DNA from: a virus
Lineage: Duplodnaviria; Heunggongvirae; Uroviricota; Caudoviricetes
IMG/VR virus record: IMGVR_UViG_2778261459_000007
Coordinates: 1 to 24,712 of that record
Length of the DNA: 24,712 bases
Strand: one strand, 5' to 3'
Position numbers and translations under genes: made by a program. Below, in pieces: positions 1-22,734 of the stretch. The notes beneath the pieces are model-generated. The model did no database searches. It saw only the letters and a program-made list of their open reading frames with translations, and was not told the origin of the DNA. Position 1 is the stretch's first letter. Each line of letters begins with the position of its first letter.

Positions 1-1158
1 ATGCTCACCGTTAAGCAGATTGAAGCAGCAAAGCCGAAAGAAAAACCATACCGCCTACTCGATGGTAATGGCCTGTACCTTTATGTCCCTGTATCCGGAA
101 AAAAGGTCTGGCAGCTTCGCTACAAGATTGACGGTAAGGAGAAAATCCTGACTGTCGGAAAATATCCGCTTATGACTTTGCAGGAGGCAAGGGATAAAGC
201 ATGGACTGCGAGGAAAGACATCTGGGTTGGTATAGATCCGGTAAAAGCGAAAAAGGCTTCGTCTAACAACAATTCCTTTAGCGCCATTTACAAGGAATGG
301 TACGAGCACAAGAAGCAAGTCTGGTCTGTAGGGTATGCGACTGAACTTGCAAAAATGTTTGATGACGACATTTTACCTATCATCGGCGGCCTTGAAATTC
401 AGGATATTGAGCCGATGCAACTGCTGGAAGTAATCCGCAGATTTGAAGATCGCGGTGCAATGGAACGAGCCAATAAAGCCCGAAGAAGATGCGGCGAGGT
501 TTTCCGTTACGCTATTGTCACCGGAAGGGCTAAATATAACCCGGCACCTGACCTTGCTGACGCCATGAAGGGATACCGCAAGAAGAACTTCCCGTTTCTT
601 CCTGCAGACCAGATCCCGGCATTTAACAAAGCACTGGCAACATTTTCAGGAAGCATCGTATCGCTCATTGCGACCAAAGTTTTACGCTACACAGCCCTCA
701 GAACAAAAGAGCTTCGTTCCATGCTATGGAAGAACGTCGATTTTGAAAACAGGATTATCACCATCGACGCCAATGTGATGAAGGGACGCAAAATTCATGT
801 GGTTCCTATGTCAGACCAGGTAGTTGAACTTCTCACTACGCTAAGCTCAATCACTAAACCAGTGTCAGAGTTTGTTTTTGCCGGGCGCAACGATAAGAAG
901 AAGCCAATCTGCGAGAACGCGGTATTGCTTGTGATCAAACAAATCGGCTATGAGGGTCTGGAAAGCGGTCACGGATTCAGGCATGAATTCAGCACAATTA
1001 TGAACGAGCACGAATGGCCTGCTGACGCTATTGAAGTGCAACTGGCACATGCCAACGGCGGATCTGTGCGTGGGATTTACAACCATGCTCAGTATCTCGA
1101 TAAACGCAGAGAAATGATGCAGTGGTGGGCGGACTGGCTTGATGAAAAGGTGGAGTGA
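1..1158 (+). CDS. int: Tyrosine integrase, P4-family (site-specific recombinase)
   Basis: 385-codon ORF starting at window base 1. N-terminal arm-type DNA-binding motif (LTVKQIEAAKPKEKPYRL..DGNGLYL) typical of P4-like integrases; C-terminal catalytic region with H-x-x-R (HGFRHEF) and a terminal tyrosine region (GIYNHAQY). Convergent with the acyltransferase, as int is at the conversion-gene end of P22/Sf6-type genomes. Confidence 0.9.
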   Translation: MLTVKQIEAAKPKEKPYRLLDGNGLYLYVPVSGKKVWQLRYKIDGKEKILTVGKYPLMTLQEARDKAWTARKDIWVGIDPVKAKKASSNNNSFSAIYKEWYEHKKQVWSVGYATELAKMFDDDILPIIGGLEIQDIEPMQLLEVIRRFEDRGAMERANKARRRCGEVFRYAIVTGRAKYNPAPDLADAMKGYRKKNFPFLPADQIPAFNKALATFSGSIVSLIATKVLRYTALRTKELRSMLWKNVDFENRIITIDANVMKGRKIHVVPMSDQVVELLTTLSSITKPVSEFVFAGRNDKKKPICENAVLLVIKQIGYEGLESGHGFRHEFSTIMNEHEWPADAIEVQLAHANGGSVRGIYNHAQYLDKRREMMQWWADWLDEKVE

Positions 1159-1284
1159 TCCGCCTTAACCACTATCGAAGAGTACAAAGCCTTGCAATCC
1201 AGCGCAAAGCTTTGTGTGTTTCAGTTTTGTCTAACGTTACAGAAGCATCCAGAACGCATATCATTGATGCCACAAAAATACAGA
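1159..1284. other. Candidate attP-containing intergenic region between convergent int and acyltransferase
   Basis: In lambda, P22 and Sf6 the attP core lies just 3' of int, between int and the conversion/tailspike end. Here int (+) and the acyltransferase (-) converge on this 126-bp gap. I could not recognise a tRNA-derived core (no T-loop-like GGTTCGAnTCC motif), so this is positional only. Confidence 0.3.
1184..1231 (+). terminator. Candidate intrinsic terminator downstream of int
   Basis: Inverted repeat ACAAAGC (1184-1190) / GCTTTGT (1209-1215), plus the palindrome CAAAGCTTTG, followed by a T-rich run GTGTTTCAGTTTTGT. The loop is large (18 nt), so the hairpin is weak. Confidence 0.3.
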
Positions 1285-2334
1285 CTAAGATGATTGGTAC
1301 ACATTTTTTCTTGTATACCTGTCCTTAAGTCTTAGGAATGGCAACTCAAAATACTTAAACGACAGTGCAGAAATGGCGATAGTAAGAGAAATCTTGGTTA
1401 CATCCACCATTGGTCCAGAGATCCAAAGTAAATGCCCTCTGTACTGAAGAGAATCAACGATTTGAATTGCAAGCGGATGCCATATATACAATCCATAACT
1501 AATCTTTCCAATGTAAATTAATGGAGCAATAGTTAGAAACTTTGCTTTTATAACACCAGAAGCGATTACACCAATGAGACCTGCAAACATCATGTTTGAT
1601 GAAAGATAAAGGCTCTGGTTAGCAATTTCAGGACCAGTATGCCAGCCATATATTAGCGCACCGAATTTAACTACCGCGATAAACCAGAATATCCCTACAG
1701 TTAAGAGCAAACACGACACAATCATCATGACACGTTGTTTAACGGAAATAACAGCAATTATTGCCCCTATAAGAAGTGTGTCCATAGCTGAGAACAGCGG
1801 GGCAAACGATACTATTTGTGTATATTCTGCAAGATAAAATCGTGATGCGATCGCTACGCAAGAAAGTGCAACCGCAGATATAAAAATCCACTTTCTGTTA
1901 CAGAAGAAAACAACTAGTGGCCATAGTAAATAAAATTGTTCTTCTACAGCAAGTGACCATGTATGACCAAATTCCTGCCCTGGAACATACAGGAAGCCAT
2001 TCCATGCCATCGTGTAATTCTGTATATAGAAAATATAGTAAAACCAATTCTGCGTATCTTTTATTCCAAGATATGAGCAGTAAACGAATACAACTAATAT
2101 ATATAAATAATATAGCGGAAATATACGTAGACTTCTTCTTATATAGAAATTGGAAAAGAAGTTATTATCTTTCTTTGATTCTATCAATATCCTTGTAATC
2201 AAGAAACCAGAAAGCACAAAGAAAAAAGAAACACCAAGCCACCCCATTCCGAACCCAGGGATGCCTAAGTGATACAGGATAACACTAATAACACTGAACG
2301 CTCTTAGTCCATCAAGTTGCTGAATATGCTTCAT
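1285..2334 (-). CDS. Acyltransferase family 3 membrane protein, O-antigen acetyltransferase-like (lysogenic conversion, Oac-like)
   Basis: 349-aa ORF, very hydrophobic and multi-pass (MKHIQQLDGLRAFSVISVILYHLG... with the N-terminal GLR..H motif of Acyltransferase_3/OafA-type enzymes). Markedly AT-rich versus its flanks, roughly 35 percent versus 50 percent GC by eye. It sits between tailspike and int, exactly where Sf6 carries oac. Confidence 0.85.
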   Translation of the reverse strand: MKHIQQLDGLRAFSVISVILYHLGIPGFGMGWLGVSFFFVLSGFLITRILIESKKDNNFFSNFYIRRSLRIFPLYYLYILVVFVYCSYLGIKDTQNWFYYIFYIQNYTMAWNGFLYVPGQEFGHTWSLAVEEQFYLLWPLVVFFCNRKWIFISAVALSCVAIASRFYLAEYTQIVSFAPLFSAMDTLLIGAIIAVISVKQRVMMIVSCLLLTVGIFWFIAVVKFGALIYGWHTGPEIANQSLYLSSNMMFAGLIGVIASGVIKAKFLTIAPLIYIGKISYGLYIWHPLAIQIVDSLQYRGHLLWISGPMVDVTKISLTIAISALSFKYFELPFLRLKDRYTRKNVYQSS

Positions 2335-2365
2335 TTCATTATTTTAGAAAAAGTTAAAGGAGTGA

Positions 2366-2393
2366 AGTTTACCACACATCCAGCAACCCGCAA
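2366..2393 (-). promoter_or_regulatory. Candidate sigma70 promoter for the acyltransferase gene
   Basis: On the minus strand: TTGCGG (-35, 2393..2388), 16-nt spacer, TGgTAAACT (extended -10, 2374..2366), about 30 nt upstream of the ATG at 2334. Overlaps the tailspike stop codon. Confidence 0.3.
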
Positions 2394-2394
2394 C

Positions 2395-4434
2395 TTAACC
2401 TATCTGCTGCAAAACGCTTATCCCAGCACTCAAGCACTTGAGTAAAGTTGCTCTGTATTGCCCAAGCGAGTAGTTGACGGCTCCTGACGTAAGAATGTTG
2501 TCTGAGGAGTATGCGATGGTAGTTCCTGTATTGTTGGTCGTAACAATTACATCTCGCCCATATGGAGCTCCATAAATGTGTCCGATAGTTACGTTATCTG
2601 CCATGACTCTAATCTGGGTGGCTGGGTGGTAGTCTGTTAAATCAATATCACCACTGACATTTATGTCCCTATACTTAGGTAACTTACCGTCAAACCCATA
2701 AACAGTTGCCGCATTATCAAGATATTTGTGAACTGAGTCGCTTTCCTGATATTCATTTCCGCTGCATATGGCTGAGCCAGTAATGATGAAACCAGACGTT
2801 CTTTTAATACCGTTGTCATTACCAAGGAATGCAAATGAACTTCCTGATACGCTACCTTCATGAACAGTAACACCAAAGAGTCTGTCGCTATCATCATCAA
2901 TTTTGATGGCAAATGTGCAATTAGAGACAGTACCTCTTTGAATATAAAGTGATTGCTTAGAAGGTGTTGCTGAGATCATCTGGCACTCACCAAAGTGGAT
3001 ATGAGAACCAGTAAAATACCCAATATCAATACTCCCACCAGGAGCCAGCCAAATGCATTCACTGAACGTAATATATGCTCCGTTACTCATCATAAAGTAG
3101 GGCACATCTTTGCGTTCCATTGATAGCTTAGTTGCCAGATATGCAGCGTCAACAGGTATAAATGTACACTCACTGAAAGACAGGCGATAAGAGTTTCCAA
3201 GATTCATTGCTGTTGAAATGTAATAGAATCTGTCGTTATCAGTAACCCCATCACCGACAGGCCTTGCAACTTCAAAATGACACTGGCTCCATGAGAAGTT
3301 CCAGCAATTATTAATGTTAAACATATATGCCGTTAGTTCGAAATGGCAACCATTAAAATATACATAGTTTGAGTCTGTATTGCATGTTACTGCGAAGTTT
3401 GTTGAGTTACCGCATTGTAAAACGCTACAGTTGTTAAAGTATGTGTCTTGTATATATCCAAGCTCAAGCCCCTGATTAGGGAAGTGCTGGATATTTACAC
3501 CGCTGACAACCCCCATCCAACCTACATTTGCAAGATGCAGACCTACATCGCATTGACCATCTACACCCCAGATAGCGAAATCACGTAGGTTAAGCCCAAA
3601 ACAGTATTTATCCGGCGCAATCGAAAGAGTTCTACCATTGGCAACTTTAGAGTGGAACGTTGTTCCGCGAACTGGAGATGGTGAATGTGCTGTACTCGAT
3701 ACGTCTCGTAAACCCTGACCACCTTCGCCATAAAGAGAAGGTGCATAATCAGCAACGACGGTATCAGAAATTATATAATCACCAGATGGTTGAAAGACTC
3801 CAGCATTTCTTGTTTTGGCTACATTTATAGCCGATTGCCAAGCTGCATAATCTTGGCTTTGTGATAATGATGTAACAAACGGATACACCATTTGTGCGGC
3901 TGTTAATGTTGAGAAGATTTCACTAAGAGGGTGATCATTTCCGTCTCCAATAGCACCAAAATCTTTTAAGTTTAATACATCTTTATTTTTATCGTGCTGT
4001 GTTCTCTGAACAGCACCAGTATATGGCTGGTGAACGAATACTTTTGCATCATTTACTAACGGTGGCTGACTATCACTTAGAAGTTCTGATCTTAGCTGAT
4101 CAGGATCATACTTCAGAACATTCGGAAAATAGAACTGCTGCGCACCGTATGCATCATAAACAGCCATAGAATGGCCTTGCACAGTTACGAACTTTGCAAT
4201 CTGTCCGTTATATACCGGGTAACCAGCAGCGTTAATGATGATTGGTTGCGAAACAGGAACGTGAGATCCATCTTCGTTTTCTACATAAACCTGAATCTGG
4301 TTTTCAGGATTTACCGGATCAGTGTCAATTTTACCGATATAAATTTTGCCATTGGCTACAGTTTTAAAAGAACGAGCCATAGTGAAGAATTGAGAAGGCA
4401 TGCTTACCACAACATTTGCGGTGATATCTGACAT
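2395..4434 (-). CDS. Tailspike protein (P22 gp9 / Sf6 gp14 family): conserved N-terminal head-binding domain plus beta-helix receptor-binding domain
   Basis: N-terminus [59 protein letters not shown]... matches the P22-like tailspike head-binding domain. The remainder is N/S/T/G-rich, consistent with a right-handed beta-helix. Start chosen at ATG 4434, preceded by GGAG; the ORF-track start at 4482 adds 16 non-conserved residues. Confidence 0.9.
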
Positions 4435-4555
4435 TTCATTGCTCCAGACGAATGATATGATGCAATCATGATGTGATTGCATACCGAAATGGTACTATTG
4501 AGTATTTATCCAGTAGGTTACGATGCCATTCCACCCAACTGGTGAGGCATCAAGG
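4435..4555. promoter_or_regulatory. Divergent promoter/operator region between tailspike and mnt
   Basis: 121-bp gap between divergent start codons. Contains inverted repeat ATGCAATC (4460-4467) / GATTGCAT (4475-4482), the 8-bp palindrome ATCATGAT (4465-4472), and a possible plus-strand promoter TTGCAT (4477-4482) - 17 nt - GAGTAT (4500-4505). Confidence 0.35.
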
Positions 4556-4816
4556 ATGTACAGCAAATACGACGAGGCGCAGTTTCACTTGAGACTTCCG
4601 CATGAACTCCACGCGAAAATTAAACATCGCGCGAAGATGAATAACAGGTCGCTGAACTCAGAGATAATTGCAGCGATTGAAGAATCATTGGATAAACAAA
4701 GCTCTGCATCAGTTTACATTGACGATGCAGAGCGTATGGCAGAACAACAATCGGATATGGTTAAGAAAATTGTCTTTGATACGCTCAGAGATTTATATAA
4801 AAAAGACAGCAACTAA
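4556..4816 (+). CDS. mnt: Mnt-like ribbon-helix-helix repressor (Arc/MetJ fold)
   Basis: Translation ...DEAQFHLRLPHELHAKIKHRAKMNNRSLNSEIIAAIEESLDK...DAERMAEQQSDMVKKIVFDTLRDLYKK aligns along its length with P22 Mnt as I recall it (DPHFNFRMPMEVREKLKFRAEANGRSMNSELLQIVQDALSK...NDAERLADEQSELVKKMVFDTLKDLYKK). Start set at ATG 4556, preceded by AAGGA; the ORF-track start at 4523 gives an unaligned N-terminal extension. Confidence 0.85.
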   Translation: MYSKYDEAQFHLRLPHELHAKIKHRAKMNNRSLNSEIIAAIEESLDKQSSASVYIDDAERMAEQQSDMVKKIVFDTLRDLYKKDSN

Positions 4817-4833
4817 CCATCCGTGGCTTTCCG

Positions 4834-7137
4834 TTACTTCTGGTTATCATCACTGTTCATCCAGTACATGATGCCTAGCCTTGATATGGTTTTCTTATCT
4901 GATTCTGGAAGTGAGTTGTAAAACGAGCGCCAAGCAGAAGAGCGTCTTACAGTTGTATCAACGATGCTTTCTGGTGCTTGTTTTACTGCCAGCCTTGCTG
5001 CTTTCTGGAATTCTGGTGAGCTAATTAGCTTTTCTGCAGATTCAATTGATTCAGCGCCGCCCATCGCCCTGATTTTGCTGGCGACTTTTGCCCCAATTTC
5101 TGACCCAGCAACAGCACCTACTGCACTGAACGGTCCTGACACAGTTGAACCAACCGCAGTGCCAATGCGTTGGGCATGGTTAGCAACAAATTCATTTGCC
5201 GCAGTGACGCGATTAAACCGTTTGACGAACTCGTTTAGTCTTCCTGTAGTTATCTCGTAAGATTTTGCGTCTTTGATAGCCTTTGCGACCTTATATACAT
5301 CGTTCAGACCTGACATAGTCTCTTTTGGTAAATGTCGGGCAAGATTGCGCATCTGCCCGTTTGCTAACATGTTTTGATACCAGTCAGCAAACCCTGCAGG
5401 ATTAAAATCAGCGCCACGTTTTCCGTTCGAAAGCATATCCCGAAGACCTGTTCCCAGTAGCTCGGTTCTTAGCTTCCTGGACGGCGTGTTTTGCATCAAT
5501 TCACGAAATCCTTTGGCATCGCCTTTCGACATTGCCTGTAGTGCTGTAGTTGCTTTGCGAGAAACATCACCGTTCAGCGTTCTGCCAGTTAGATTAATCA
5601 TTTGCTCTTCCATGCTTTTTCGCATCTGAACAAGCCTCTGAGCAACTTCAAAATCACGTAATGCATTTGTCTCTGACAGCGCCGCCTTTTGATCATCGGC
5701 GAGCGAACCGTAAAGCCTCGATAAAGCAGCGCGATCAGCATCTTTATATGGTCCAGAATTCTTATGAAGTGCATCACCAACAAGTCGTCGTTGCTTATTG
5801 AGATTTGCATAAGTTAATGCGCCGTTCTTGCCTGGATTAACTGCCCGAAAGACTCTCTTTTCAATAGGGTCAAGGTTTTTCATCCCGCCAAGATCTTCTG
5901 CCACCTGTTTGAGCATTGACCTTGTTGATGGCGCATCAATTTTTGCACCTGCAGGCATCGCCTTTTCAACATTGCGATAAAGCTGGTCGCTTCGTTTCAT
6001 CAGCGCAGACATTCTTCCATTGACCGTATCAATAAACTTGTCGCTCATACCAAGAGCATCTTTTGCACCGGAAACGTGATCAATTATCTCCCCCGCGCCC
6101 TGTGCTAGCTGCCTGATTGCTTCATTTTCCTGCACCTGTAGAGCAGAACCCGCACGGGACTTGATTGCTTGCTCAACTGCCTTGTATTGCTCGTTCCCGG
6201 AAAAGTGTGAAGGGAGTAATGAATCAACATTAAGCCTTTCAGCAGACTCCAGAACTTCAGCCTGAGGATTGATATCTAGTTCATCAAGCGATGAAGCGAG
6301 ATTTGGCCTTTTTTGTGCTGCTACTGTGCGAACGACTTCCTCTGGGTTCCTCGTCGCAGGCGTCATTGGTACACCTTGTGCTACTCTTGCCTCTGCGGCA
6401 TGAACCGCAGGATTTGTTGCTGCAGCGGCATCACCGGAGAATTGTGATGTTTCTGTTGGCGCAGTGGTCGCTCTCTGTGCAGATGTTTTATTGCCACTAA
6501 TTATATTTGATGCACCACGAACACCACGGGTAACGCCATTTATCAGGCCATGCGTAGCAATGTTAAGTCCGGCATTAATAGCGGCATTTTCGGCAAAATC
6601 ACCCCGTTGATTCGCCGCGTCAGCGAGAGAACCAATGACCATGTTTCCAGCTACACCTGCTCCAGGAACAAGATAACCGCCTATTGACTCTCCAGCTTGC
6701 GCATACGGATCCGTTGGCCGGTTAACTGGTCTATATACTTCATCAAGAATCTTTGGTCCATCAAAACTCTGAGATGCGGCATTAATGAGACTCGCCCCCC
6801 CCTGAAGAACGTCAAAAGGAATATTTACAAATCCTCTTACCGCCTGCTCGGCAATTTGACCTACGCTTTGCCCACCTGTTAGCCATTCTCCTGCACGCTG
6901 CATAAGTGATTTGTCTTGCTGAATGGTATCAGGAGATTGCCCTACTTCCTGCTGTTCTGTCTGCATTGAAGGCAATGGATAGGCATCATAGAAAGCTTGC
7001 TTAGCCTGATCTGCATTTTCTCCGGCTTGCGGGGCCACGACTTCATTGAAGTATTGCTCCTGAGCCTGCGCTTTTTGTTCTGGTGCTAACGCCTGATACT
7101 GTGGAGAGGCGATAACATCTTTCCATGCTTTAGCCAT
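4834..7137 (-). CDS. Ejection (E) protein, P22 gp16-like
   Basis: 767-aa ORF, third of three consecutive ejection-protein genes in the conserved gp7-gp20-gp16 order. Its start overlaps the upstream stop (TAATG). Ala/Gly/Gln-rich composition typical of ejection proteins. Call rests on position and composition, not sequence recall. Confidence 0.75.
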
Positions 7138-22245: not shown

Positions 22246-22734
22246 CTACGCTACATGTTTAATTTTCTCTACACGTTTCCGGTTTTTAAACGCACTATCC
22301 AGAACCGGGTAAATCATAAACAACGAGGCATTGAGGATTTCGTCAACTTCCCGACGACAGGTTGCGAGCGATGGTTTTTGAATGCGCCCGCCGCCCCGGC
22401 ATAACATCTTGCGAGGTCTTGCGACGCGATGATAGTAAGATGCAATGGCGTGCTTGGAAGAACCGTGGGCGTAGTAGCTGAGGAGGATGCCAAAGGCTTT
22501 CTTGTCAATGTACATGACGGAATCGACGACCTGAGAAATCAACATTCCATCATCATCATTGCACATTGGCCTTGTCATAACTCTTCCCGGCTCTACGCTC
22601 TCCATGAACTTCGCTATTACGCTGCTCATGCGCTTTTCCAGACGACCTGAATAAACCCATGCGCCCCACAGTTCAAGCCAGCCATTCAGCCACTCATGCT
22701 GTTCTTTGGTGAGGTTTAGTTCTCTTATGCCCAC
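22246..22734 (-). CDS. Q: Late-gene antitermination protein Q (non-lambda type; length and sequence suggest the phage 21 Q family)
   Basis: 162-aa ORF immediately downstream of the nin region and upstream of pR'/tR' and the lysis genes. Not lambda Q (207 aa). Cys-containing motif (CRGGGR…C) consistent with a Q-family zinc-binding element. Family assignment is from memory and position. Confidence 0.75.

Follow-up and report, generated by a model that had tools for sequence, protein, structure and literature searches.

Why does a gene for a membrane-bound acyltransferase follow the tailspike gene of a P22-like phage, and which polysaccharide would its product modify? The question was raised by a window of 24,712 nucleotides (nt), the whole stretch of DNA analysed here (positions 1 to 24,712 of virus record IMGVR_UViG_2778261459_000007), in which an acyltransferase-3 (AT3) gene lies between a tailspike gene and an integrase gene (int). 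Comparison with related sequences and with characterised analogues suggests that the enzyme probably acetylates the O antigen bound by the adjacent tailspike and is expressed from the prophage, as a case of lysogenic conversion. The AT3 gene was found to be inherited together with the receptor-binding domain (RBD) of the tailspike. The initial annotation of the window had proposed an acquired, O-antigen-modifying gene with a promoter of its own, and this is in essence supported: each computational check suggested there came out in its favour except orthology to Sf6 Oac, and the points to be corrected concern orientation, orthology and what is transferred as a unit. The features on which the argument turns are the following:

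1285..2334, minus strand: coding sequence of the AT3-only membrane O-acyltransferase, 349 amino acids (aa), ATG start, ten predicted transmembrane helices

2335..2394, minus strand: gap of 60 nt between the tailspike and AT3 genes, with an A/U-rich leader

2395..4434, minus strand: tailspike coding sequence, 679 aa, WP_097330756.1, stop codon TAA at 2397..2395

1195..4092, minus strand: replaceable cassette of the AT3 gene and the tailspike RBD, with flanks 89-96% identical to CUS-3, Sf6 and Kapi1

The prediction of a 349-aa multi-pass acyltransferase was borne out. The protein matched the Pfam family Acyl_transf_3 (PF01757) with E=3.1e-24 and 86.1 bits against a cutoff of 31, over profile positions 2-323 of 326, and it matched PHROGs families of O-acetyltransferases and O-antigen acetylases at E ~1e-42; among NCBIfam models SucT alone was hit, far below threshold. 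The choice of start codon is supported by the relatives, all of which open with MKHIQQ. AT3 carbohydrate acetyltransferases carry R/K-X10-H in helix 1, an FFXISG-type motif in helix 2 and an RXXR motif placed before transmembrane helix 3, and in OafA both R14 and H25 of R/K-X10-H are essential (Pearson et al., PMC7448272). The corresponding motifs in the window protein are R11-X10-H22, with ten residues between, F38-F-V-L-S-G43 and R67-S-L-R70. In an alignment of 46 homologues, reaching down to 33% identity, R11, H22, F38, F39, S42, G43, R67 and R70 were invariant, E330 and K337 were also kept, and the window protein retained every invariant family residue.

The AlphaFold2 model built from this alignment (pLDDT 90.2, pTM 0.90) contained ten long helices and no extra domain, and the predicted topology is the AT3 fold of ten transmembrane helices. 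No second Pfam domain, 11th transmembrane helix or SGNH domain was found in the 349-aa protein, which ends after helix 10; as modelled, it belongs with stand-alone AT3 proteins such as Oac and WecH, and differs from the AT3-SGNH fusions OafA, OatA and BTP1 GtrC. A phmmer search against PDB sequences gave no match. The best solved fold match was human HGSNAT (8vkj and others; Foldseek probability 1.0, TM-score 0.46), which fits the proposed acetyl transfer across the membrane (PMC9833829), and a predicted model of a viral AT3-SGNH protein had a TM-score of 0.73 to the window model.

A megablast search of positions 1159-2500 against the phage collection returned no match, and the best protein matches in 50,697 phage records were ~30-33% identical (BTP1 GtrC, g341c, PAJU2 and others), so that no sequenced reference phage appears to carry this gene. 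Database entries for the exact protein call it no more than 'acyltransferase [Escherichia coli]' (EFK5171950.1 and others), and accessions of these AT3 proteins were not found in the papers searched. The identical allele was present in at least 24 public contigs, always in the order tailspike-AT3-int, and with yfdC and mlaA next in five of the five places shown. The gene is also shared almost unchanged between E. coli and Salmonella.

The initial annotation had taken the AT3 gene for a horizontally acquired moron. Acquisition is supported, since the gene is absent at this place in the otherwise closely related (89-96%) backbones of CUS-3, Kapi1 and Sf6 and is deviant in GC content (0.369 vs 0.497); the part to be corrected is that AT3 did not come alone, as the RBD is included. 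Matches between the window and CUS-3 were limited to 1-1194 and 4093-4448. CUS-3, Sf6 and Kapi1 share int (96%) and the head-binding domain of the tailspike (~89%) with the window, and nothing in 1195-4092, an interval that holds neuO and an endosialidase domain in CUS-3, oac and an endorhamnosidase domain in Sf6, and a 34-aa open reading frame (ORF) and another domain in Kapi1. In the window tailspike, the P22 head-binding adaptor comprises aa 1-113 and the RBD ~aa 110/129-679 (window ~2395-4092). The mechanically called tailspike ORF starts at 4482 (695 aa); the true start was placed at the ATG at 4434 because the head-binding match, all relatives and the 679-aa database protein begin there. 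A pig E. coli prophage gave a continuous match of 86.5% over 1307-4448, and Citrobacter sp. FP75, the one true relative in the genome contig scan, a match of 74% over 1311-4035; in both, one unbroken alignment covers AT3 and tailspike.

To quantify the linkage, we used nine relatives with a readable tailspike, reached via AT3 homologues (54-91% aa identity); the tailspike ORF of FP75 was not recovered intact. The AT3 gene was located 46-98 nt downstream of the tailspike gene and on the same strand in all nine loci, and in all nine the C-terminal ~550 tailspike residues were homologous to those of the window (46-99% identity), most of these tailspikes ending in ...SVLQQIG. The adaptors at the other end of the tailspikes were of three types: the window and loci L001 and L015 have P22 Head_binding; Salmonella Techimani and Enterobacter asburiae have Tail_spike_N, in versions that share 41% identity; and L013 and L017 have a third type, with L016 ~41% identical to it. 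Global identity between the three adaptor groups was 12-35%. Pairwise identities of the RBDs and of the AT3 proteins were strongly correlated (Pearson/Mantel r=0.80, permutation p=0.001; Spearman 0.90), and adaptor identity was not predictive of AT3 identity (rho 0.26, not significant). Two virulent phages with an RBD of ~52% aa identity, Ithacavirus FSL SP-076 and Kuttervirus SS9, have a second tailspike downstream and no AT3, and all AT3 carriers found were prophages. Judged from these comparisons, the mobile unit appears to be the RBD with the gap and AT3, and not AT3 alone, and it has so far been found only in temperate contexts. This joint inheritance and co-divergence across adaptor types gives the strongest support for a pair of recognition and modification functions, as had been proposed from the adjacency of the two genes.

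A candidate promoter for expression in the lysogen, independently of late transcription, lies in the gap:

2366..2374, minus strand: extended -10 element TGgTAAACT, with TG at 2374..2373 and the -10 hexamer TAAACT at 2371..2366

2388..2393, minus strand: weak -35-like hexamer TTGCGG (3/6), one base past the tailspike stop and followed by a 16-nt spacer

This promoter had been described as overlapping the tailspike stop; the string is present and its extended -10 is conserved, and it abuts the stop with one base between. We aligned the 150 nt upstream of the AT3 start from ten loci; TGTG-n-TA-nnn-T persists, although the end of the tailspike gene and the greater part of the gap have diverged, and the -10 hexamer takes the forms TAAACT, TAAGAT, TATCAT and TAGAAT. 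In eight of the ten loci, TGnTAnnnT and the start codon were 31-32 nt apart. In L018 a copy, TGATAGAAT, stands 21 nt ahead of the start codon as annotated, or 30 nt ahead of the conserved MKH start, and a second, non-homologous TGnTAnnnT match occurs as well; L013 has TACAAT without the TG. Across seven representative lineages, the five specified columns of the element were 97% conserved and the other 49 columns of the gap 61%. The comparison gives good support for a real extended -10 element, from which the transcript is predicted to start near 2359, with a leader of ~25 nt before the ATG. An alternative scan promoter, TTCACT-17-AATAAT at 2366..2338, was rejected because its conservation does not extend to distant relatives. 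The AT3 gene showed no repeats of the kind that underlie phase variation, the sole tandem repeat being a two-copy 9-mer, and no GATC was seen by eye in the 60-nt gap.

Several observations weigh against a tailspike partner expressed from the prophage. Adjacent genes are co-transferred anyway, and linkage alone is no proof of functional coupling. The AT3 gene of the window itself is an intragenic recombinant, which shows that the linkage to the tailspike can break:

1960..2005, minus strand: approximate recombination breakpoint inside the AT3 gene

The 5' third of the gene (codons 1 to ~110) is 98% identical at the nt level to L015 and L001, and the first 120 residues are identical to the protein of serovar Pomona; the 3' two-thirds are 71-84% identical to L015 and L001, with saturated synonymous divergence (dS), and match the E. 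coli allele P0130 at 96% aa. Disrupted alleles were also found, with an IS1 insertion in strain NT1F10 (NZ_CP075462.1) and with proteins P0124, P0128, P0131, P0133 and P0134 disrupted by IS1 or truncated to 141-235 aa; serovar Vitkin and an 'O rough' isolate are among the lineages affected, of which there are several in E. coli and Salmonella, and the function, dispensable in some lineages, seems to have been lost repeatedly. The nearest characterised AT3 proteins are at most ~32% identical (BTP1 GtrC, g341c). Orthology to Sf6 Oac failed in BLASTP, where the similarity was only 40% over 43 aa at E=2e-5, and AT3 enzymes also act on peptidoglycan, enterobacterial common antigen (ECA), capsules and other glycans (PMC9558356). 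On the side of expression, the -35 hexamer is weak and not conserved in distant relatives, which is what an extended -10 promoter would lead one to expect. Taken by itself as a match to the consensus, TTGCGG-16-TGgTAAACT is not above chance; a generic promoter scan did not call it, and found 9 sites in 1000-5000 vs 12.4+/-3.4 in shuffles, so that the string alone is no evidence. No Shine-Dalgarno match was found in the 60-nt gap. The AT3 gene is moreover co-directional with the late operon, which makes a lytic-phase role possible, and in L013, L016 and L017, all metagenome or Logan contigs, tailspike and AT3 are followed by holin, endolysin and spanin genes and not by int, which places AT3 inside a late or lysis transcription unit.

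These last points raise the question of whether the enzyme serves mainly in lytic growth, masking the receptor on the dying cell and its debris and thereby sparing virions, with lysogenic conversion secondary or absent. We consider this unlikely as the main role, although it accounts for the position of the gene:

22246-22734, minus strand: Q antiterminator gene, from which the late operon runs through the tailspike

AT3 is on the same strand as this whole operon, and no terminator-like structure was detected in the tailspike-AT3 gap (terminator scan; fold z-score +0.29), so that Q-antiterminated late transcription should run into AT3, whose expression is probably not exclusive to the prophage state. 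The neighbouring lysis genes in L013, L016 and L017 fit such a role, as does BTP1 GtrC, which limits re-adsorption of kin (PMC4413052). However, a purely late gene would have no need of the conserved extended -10 directly upstream, AT3 is missing from the virulent phages whose RBD is homologous, and the carriers found were all prophages. The two roles are not mutually exclusive, and because of read-through from the late operon the enzyme likely contributes during lytic growth as well as in the lysogen.

If the enzyme modifies the receptor of the tailspike, which glycan would that be? That the substrate cannot be read from sequence had been stated at the outset, and we agree; the serotypes of the hosts supply a lead. 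The cassette was found in 8 of 5426 complete E. coli genomes, even at a blastn sensitivity set for distant matches, and the eight look like one pig-associated clone. In NT1W22, the one genome inspected, the rfb cluster is annotated with O5-family wzx/wzy, rfbBA, a sugar 3,4-ketoisomerase, an acyltransferase and an aminotransferase, which is the gene set for dTDP-3-acetamido-3,6-dideoxyhexose; in the O5 structure this sugar is Qui3NAc. O5-family wzy occurred in 35 of the 5426 genomes, including eight of the eight cassette carriers (Fisher's test p=1e-18; given the clonality, nearer to one event, p ~0.006). The Salmonella carriers were named by their source as serovars Pomona and Vitkin (same 90% protein clusters) and Techimani (P0002), and the window RBD is 98-99% identical to the Salmonella enterica tailspikes P0140-P0142. 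Techimani is presumably O:28. The O-antigen backbones of Salmonella Dakar O28 and E. coli O71 are Qui3NAc-Rha-Gal-GalNAc. Pomona and Vitkin belong to O:28 (PMC7815585). Two O types, both rare, account for the carriers whose O type was determined, which are a single E. coli clone and two serovars of Salmonella. Sequence alone cannot tell the target; with the lead from the hosts, a Qui3NAc-type O antigen is a plausible, if still tentative, target of the pair. A broader and somewhat more tentative possibility is that the RBD, the gap with its extended -10 and the AT3 gene form a portable recognise-and-mask cassette, swapped among temperate chassis of E. coli, Salmonella, Citrobacter and Enterobacter and tracking Qui3NAc O antigens, namely those of the E. 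coli O5 type and of Salmonella O:28, and by analogy that of E. coli O71, which shares the O28 backbone.

The same data bear on whether AT3 could modify another glycan, such as a capsule or K antigen, ECA, colanic acid or peptidoglycan, its place beside the tailspike being simply a permissive insertion hot spot. The functional breadth of the AT3 family would allow this (PMC9833829, PMC9558356), and the slot does hold unrelated cargo elsewhere, namely neuO in CUS-3, a 336-aa protein in E. coli EC38 and almost nothing in Kapi1; the target in CUS-3 is a capsule and not an O antigen. We regard this explanation as improbable, and less probable than a mainly lytic role, since AT3 and RBD co-diverge and move jointly between different, mostly unrelated adaptor types, and since the O-typed carriers are confined to those two rare O types. 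Were the tailspike target a capsule, the logic of the pair would still stand with another polysaccharide.

The base composition, selection and 3' end of the gene were also examined, the last two bearing on whether it is functional at all. GC content is 0.369 in AT3, 0.367 in the AT3-tailspike gap, 0.412 in the tailspike, 0.418 in mnt, 0.473 in int, 0.474 in gp16 and 0.497 in the rest of the window (17.5 kb). The initial annotation had placed the GC of AT3 far below everything around it; it is indeed the minimum, of a trough that also covers the tailspike and mnt, and the contrast was overstated on the tailspike side. Between the window gene and L015, nonsynonymous divergence (dN) is 0.05 and dS 0.96, with dN/dS ~0.05, and in the divergent 3' part dN is 0.08 and dS saturated, with dN/dS still ~0.05; against more distant AT3 relatives dS is saturated. 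These ratios indicate that the AT3 gene is under strong purifying selection. Its product ends in …RYTRKNVYQSS, the last 6-9 residues being unlike those of all relatives (343-346 aa vs 349). Between AT3 and int, ~355 nt of L015 are missing in the window (window 1159-1300 vs L015 7033-7540); in L015 this stretch contains a GC hairpin with a T-run, a terminator immediately after the AT3 stop, and a 68-aa remnant of an S24 peptidase gene (HumD/UmuD-like). Both Enterobacter asburiae (L012) and pig E. coli (L001) have the S24 gene intact (129 aa), directly behind AT3. In the window, the last AT3 codons contain the junction of the deletion, which accounts for the unique tail, 6 aa longer. It is very improbable that AT3 is a decaying passenger without current function, its C-terminus altered (349 vs 343 aa) by the deletion that took the terminator: the odd tail, the lost segment and the truncated alleles elsewhere would agree with decay, but the frame is intact, every invariant family residue is kept, E330 and K337 included, dN/dS is low even in the divergent 3' part, the identical allele recurs in at least 24 contigs, and the changed tail lies past transmembrane helix 10, in a part of low model confidence.

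We return to acetylation of the tailspike receptor as the preferred explanation. Family membership, intact motifs, purifying selection, linkage to the tailspike domain and promoter conservation were all observed; from characterised analogues and from the coupling to the tailspike we infer the acetyl donor and acceptor, as well as exclusion and expression in the lysogen. If the enzyme works as characterised AT3 proteins do, cytoplasmic acetyl-CoA would be bound via R11 and H22 on transmembrane helix 1 and the RxxR motif (PMC7448272, PMC9833829), and the acetyl group would be passed across the inner membrane to its periplasmic face. The acceptor there would be a repeat unit of a periplasmic-side polysaccharide, most likely of the O antigen bound by the neighbouring tailspike, because AT3 and the RBD form one mobile, co-evolving cassette. 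In the lysogen, transcription of AT3 would begin at an extended -10 promoter of its own within the 60-nt gap, and in lytic growth late-operon transcripts would also extend into the gene. Once acetylated, the O antigen would be a poor substrate or receptor for this tailspike, so that the lipopolysaccharide of the lysogen would be protected from kin virions, phages using the same receptor would be excluded and re-adsorption of progeny would be limited.

The surrounding genes place this cassette in the late half of a P22-like (Lederbergvirus-type) prophage, with nearly all genes on the minus strand. Reading from right to left on that strand, NinX, NinG, a metallophosphatase, the Q antiterminator, holin, endolysin and Rz are followed by a Rha-like protein, terminase, portal, coat, injection proteins and a gp16-like protein, and the series closes with Mnt (plus strand), the tailspike and AT3. 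Three further features border the cassette or lie next to it:

1..1158, plus strand: gene of an IntS/Sf6-type tyrosine integrase, convergent with AT3

1184..1215, no strand assigned: perfect or near-perfect 13-bp hairpin between the convergent int and AT3 genes

4523-4816, plus strand: Mnt-type repressor gene (Arc-like RHH and Mnt C-terminal domain)

Locus L027, on a public E. coli contig (GCA_002485715.1 / NNVN01000011.1), matches window 1-2394 with 100% identity and carries a tRNA-Arg(CCT), argW, 162 nt past the int start codon, followed by yfdC and mlaA. Because these three genes lie beyond int in an identical contig, the window is a P22-like E. coli prophage, integrated at argW and beginning at the int ATG; no tRNA genes were found in the window. 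Positions 1159-1284 were proposed as attP, since pig E. coli relatives carry host genes directly after the AT3 gene, and this was rejected, because int of the Sf6/CUS-3 type has its att site on the far side and argW lies beyond int in L027. The 1184..1215 hairpin, which lies partly within the segment shared with CUS-3 (ending at 1194), has a T-rich tail on the plus strand, the int side, and is weak on the minus strand, without a U-run for AT3; the terminator scan did not call it. It looks like an int terminator, and may act weakly toward AT3 and possibly be shared.

Two side observations concern the neighbourhood of the cassette. The immI region is reduced to a lone mnt gene, without arc and without ant; among sister prophages with the identical AT3 allele, L024 is without mnt and L028 has mnt-arc-ant and an HNH gene. 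In E. coli EC38 (NZ_CP200347.1), the 336-aa protein mentioned above (L002 3088-4098) has no Pfam match and lies between the tailspike and an int remnant; it may be another receptor-modifying cargo of a P22-like prophage remnant.

What is new here is the linkage and co-divergence of RBD and AT3 across relatives, together with the conserved extended -10, a putative promoter design independent of a -35 for conversion genes inside a late operon. Phage O-antigen acetylases alter serotype, vaccine epitopes and phage susceptibility, and this clean example of an RBD that travels as a unit with a matching, presumably receptor-masking enzyme is relevant to predicting host range and to resistance against phage therapy or diagnostics that rely on tailspikes. 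The AT3 protein is a testable candidate for O-acetylation of Qui3NAc-type O antigens (O5, O71, O28). Current understanding is not overturned by these findings; the more interesting reading, if true, is that of a cassette of RBD and masking enzyme linked to Qui3NAc.

Comparison with known systems sets the window enzyme among several analogues. One is human HGSNAT, which, like the proposed AT3 mechanism, is a transmembrane acetyltransferase that takes acetyl-CoA on one side and a sugar acceptor on the other; it is eukaryotic, lysosomal, larger and 12-13% identical, an analogue at the level of fold only. P22 gtrABC also mediates lysogenic conversion from the same region of a P22-like genome, but is a three-gene system for O-antigen glucosylation, phase-variable through Dam/OxyR as cited in PMC4413052. 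BTP1 GtrC, of the OafB family, is likewise a prophage AT3 protein, from Salmonella, beside a P22-like tailspike and ~32% identical over the AT3 domain; it differs from the window protein in its length of 640 aa, in its 11th helix and periplasmic SGNH domain, and in having a gene that is convergent with the tailspike. GtrC shields the O antigen from the phage's own tailspike, blocks superinfection and cuts kin re-adsorption (PMC4413052).

Sf6 Oac, the O-antigen acetylase of Shigella flexneri, is a parallel in form, being a stand-alone AT3 of 333 aa that shares the RxxRIFP motif, encoded by a P22-like phage with an IntS-type int (96% at the nt level), in the tailspike-int slot and with its own promoter, for which the window has a candidate. 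The initial annotation had put AT3 exactly where Sf6 carries oac; the slot is the same and the orientation is opposite, since Sf6 oac is transcribed toward the tailspike (convergent with it), with its promoter on the int side and a terminator between, whereas the window gene follows the tailspike and is convergent with int. The window AT3 belongs to the same superfamily as Oac and is not a member of the Sf6 Oac/OacB-D orthologue group. The arrangement that it matches is that of CUS-3: its orientation, opposite to that of Sf6 oac and BTP1 gtrC, is the same as that of neuO, and both prophages have the order int, convergent modifier gene and tailspike at argW, with int 96% and the head-binding domain 89% identical. 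NeuO, the O-acetyltransferase of the E. coli K1 capsule, is a soluble hexapeptide-repeat acetyltransferase and not an AT3 protein, and its gene is phase-variable via heptanucleotide repeats, of which the window AT3 has none. It modifies the polysaccharide that is attacked by the adjacent tailspike. Seen beside these systems, the window AT3 is an uncharacterised member of a well-known type of phage lysogenic-conversion gene, and receptor masking is a familiar phage strategy.

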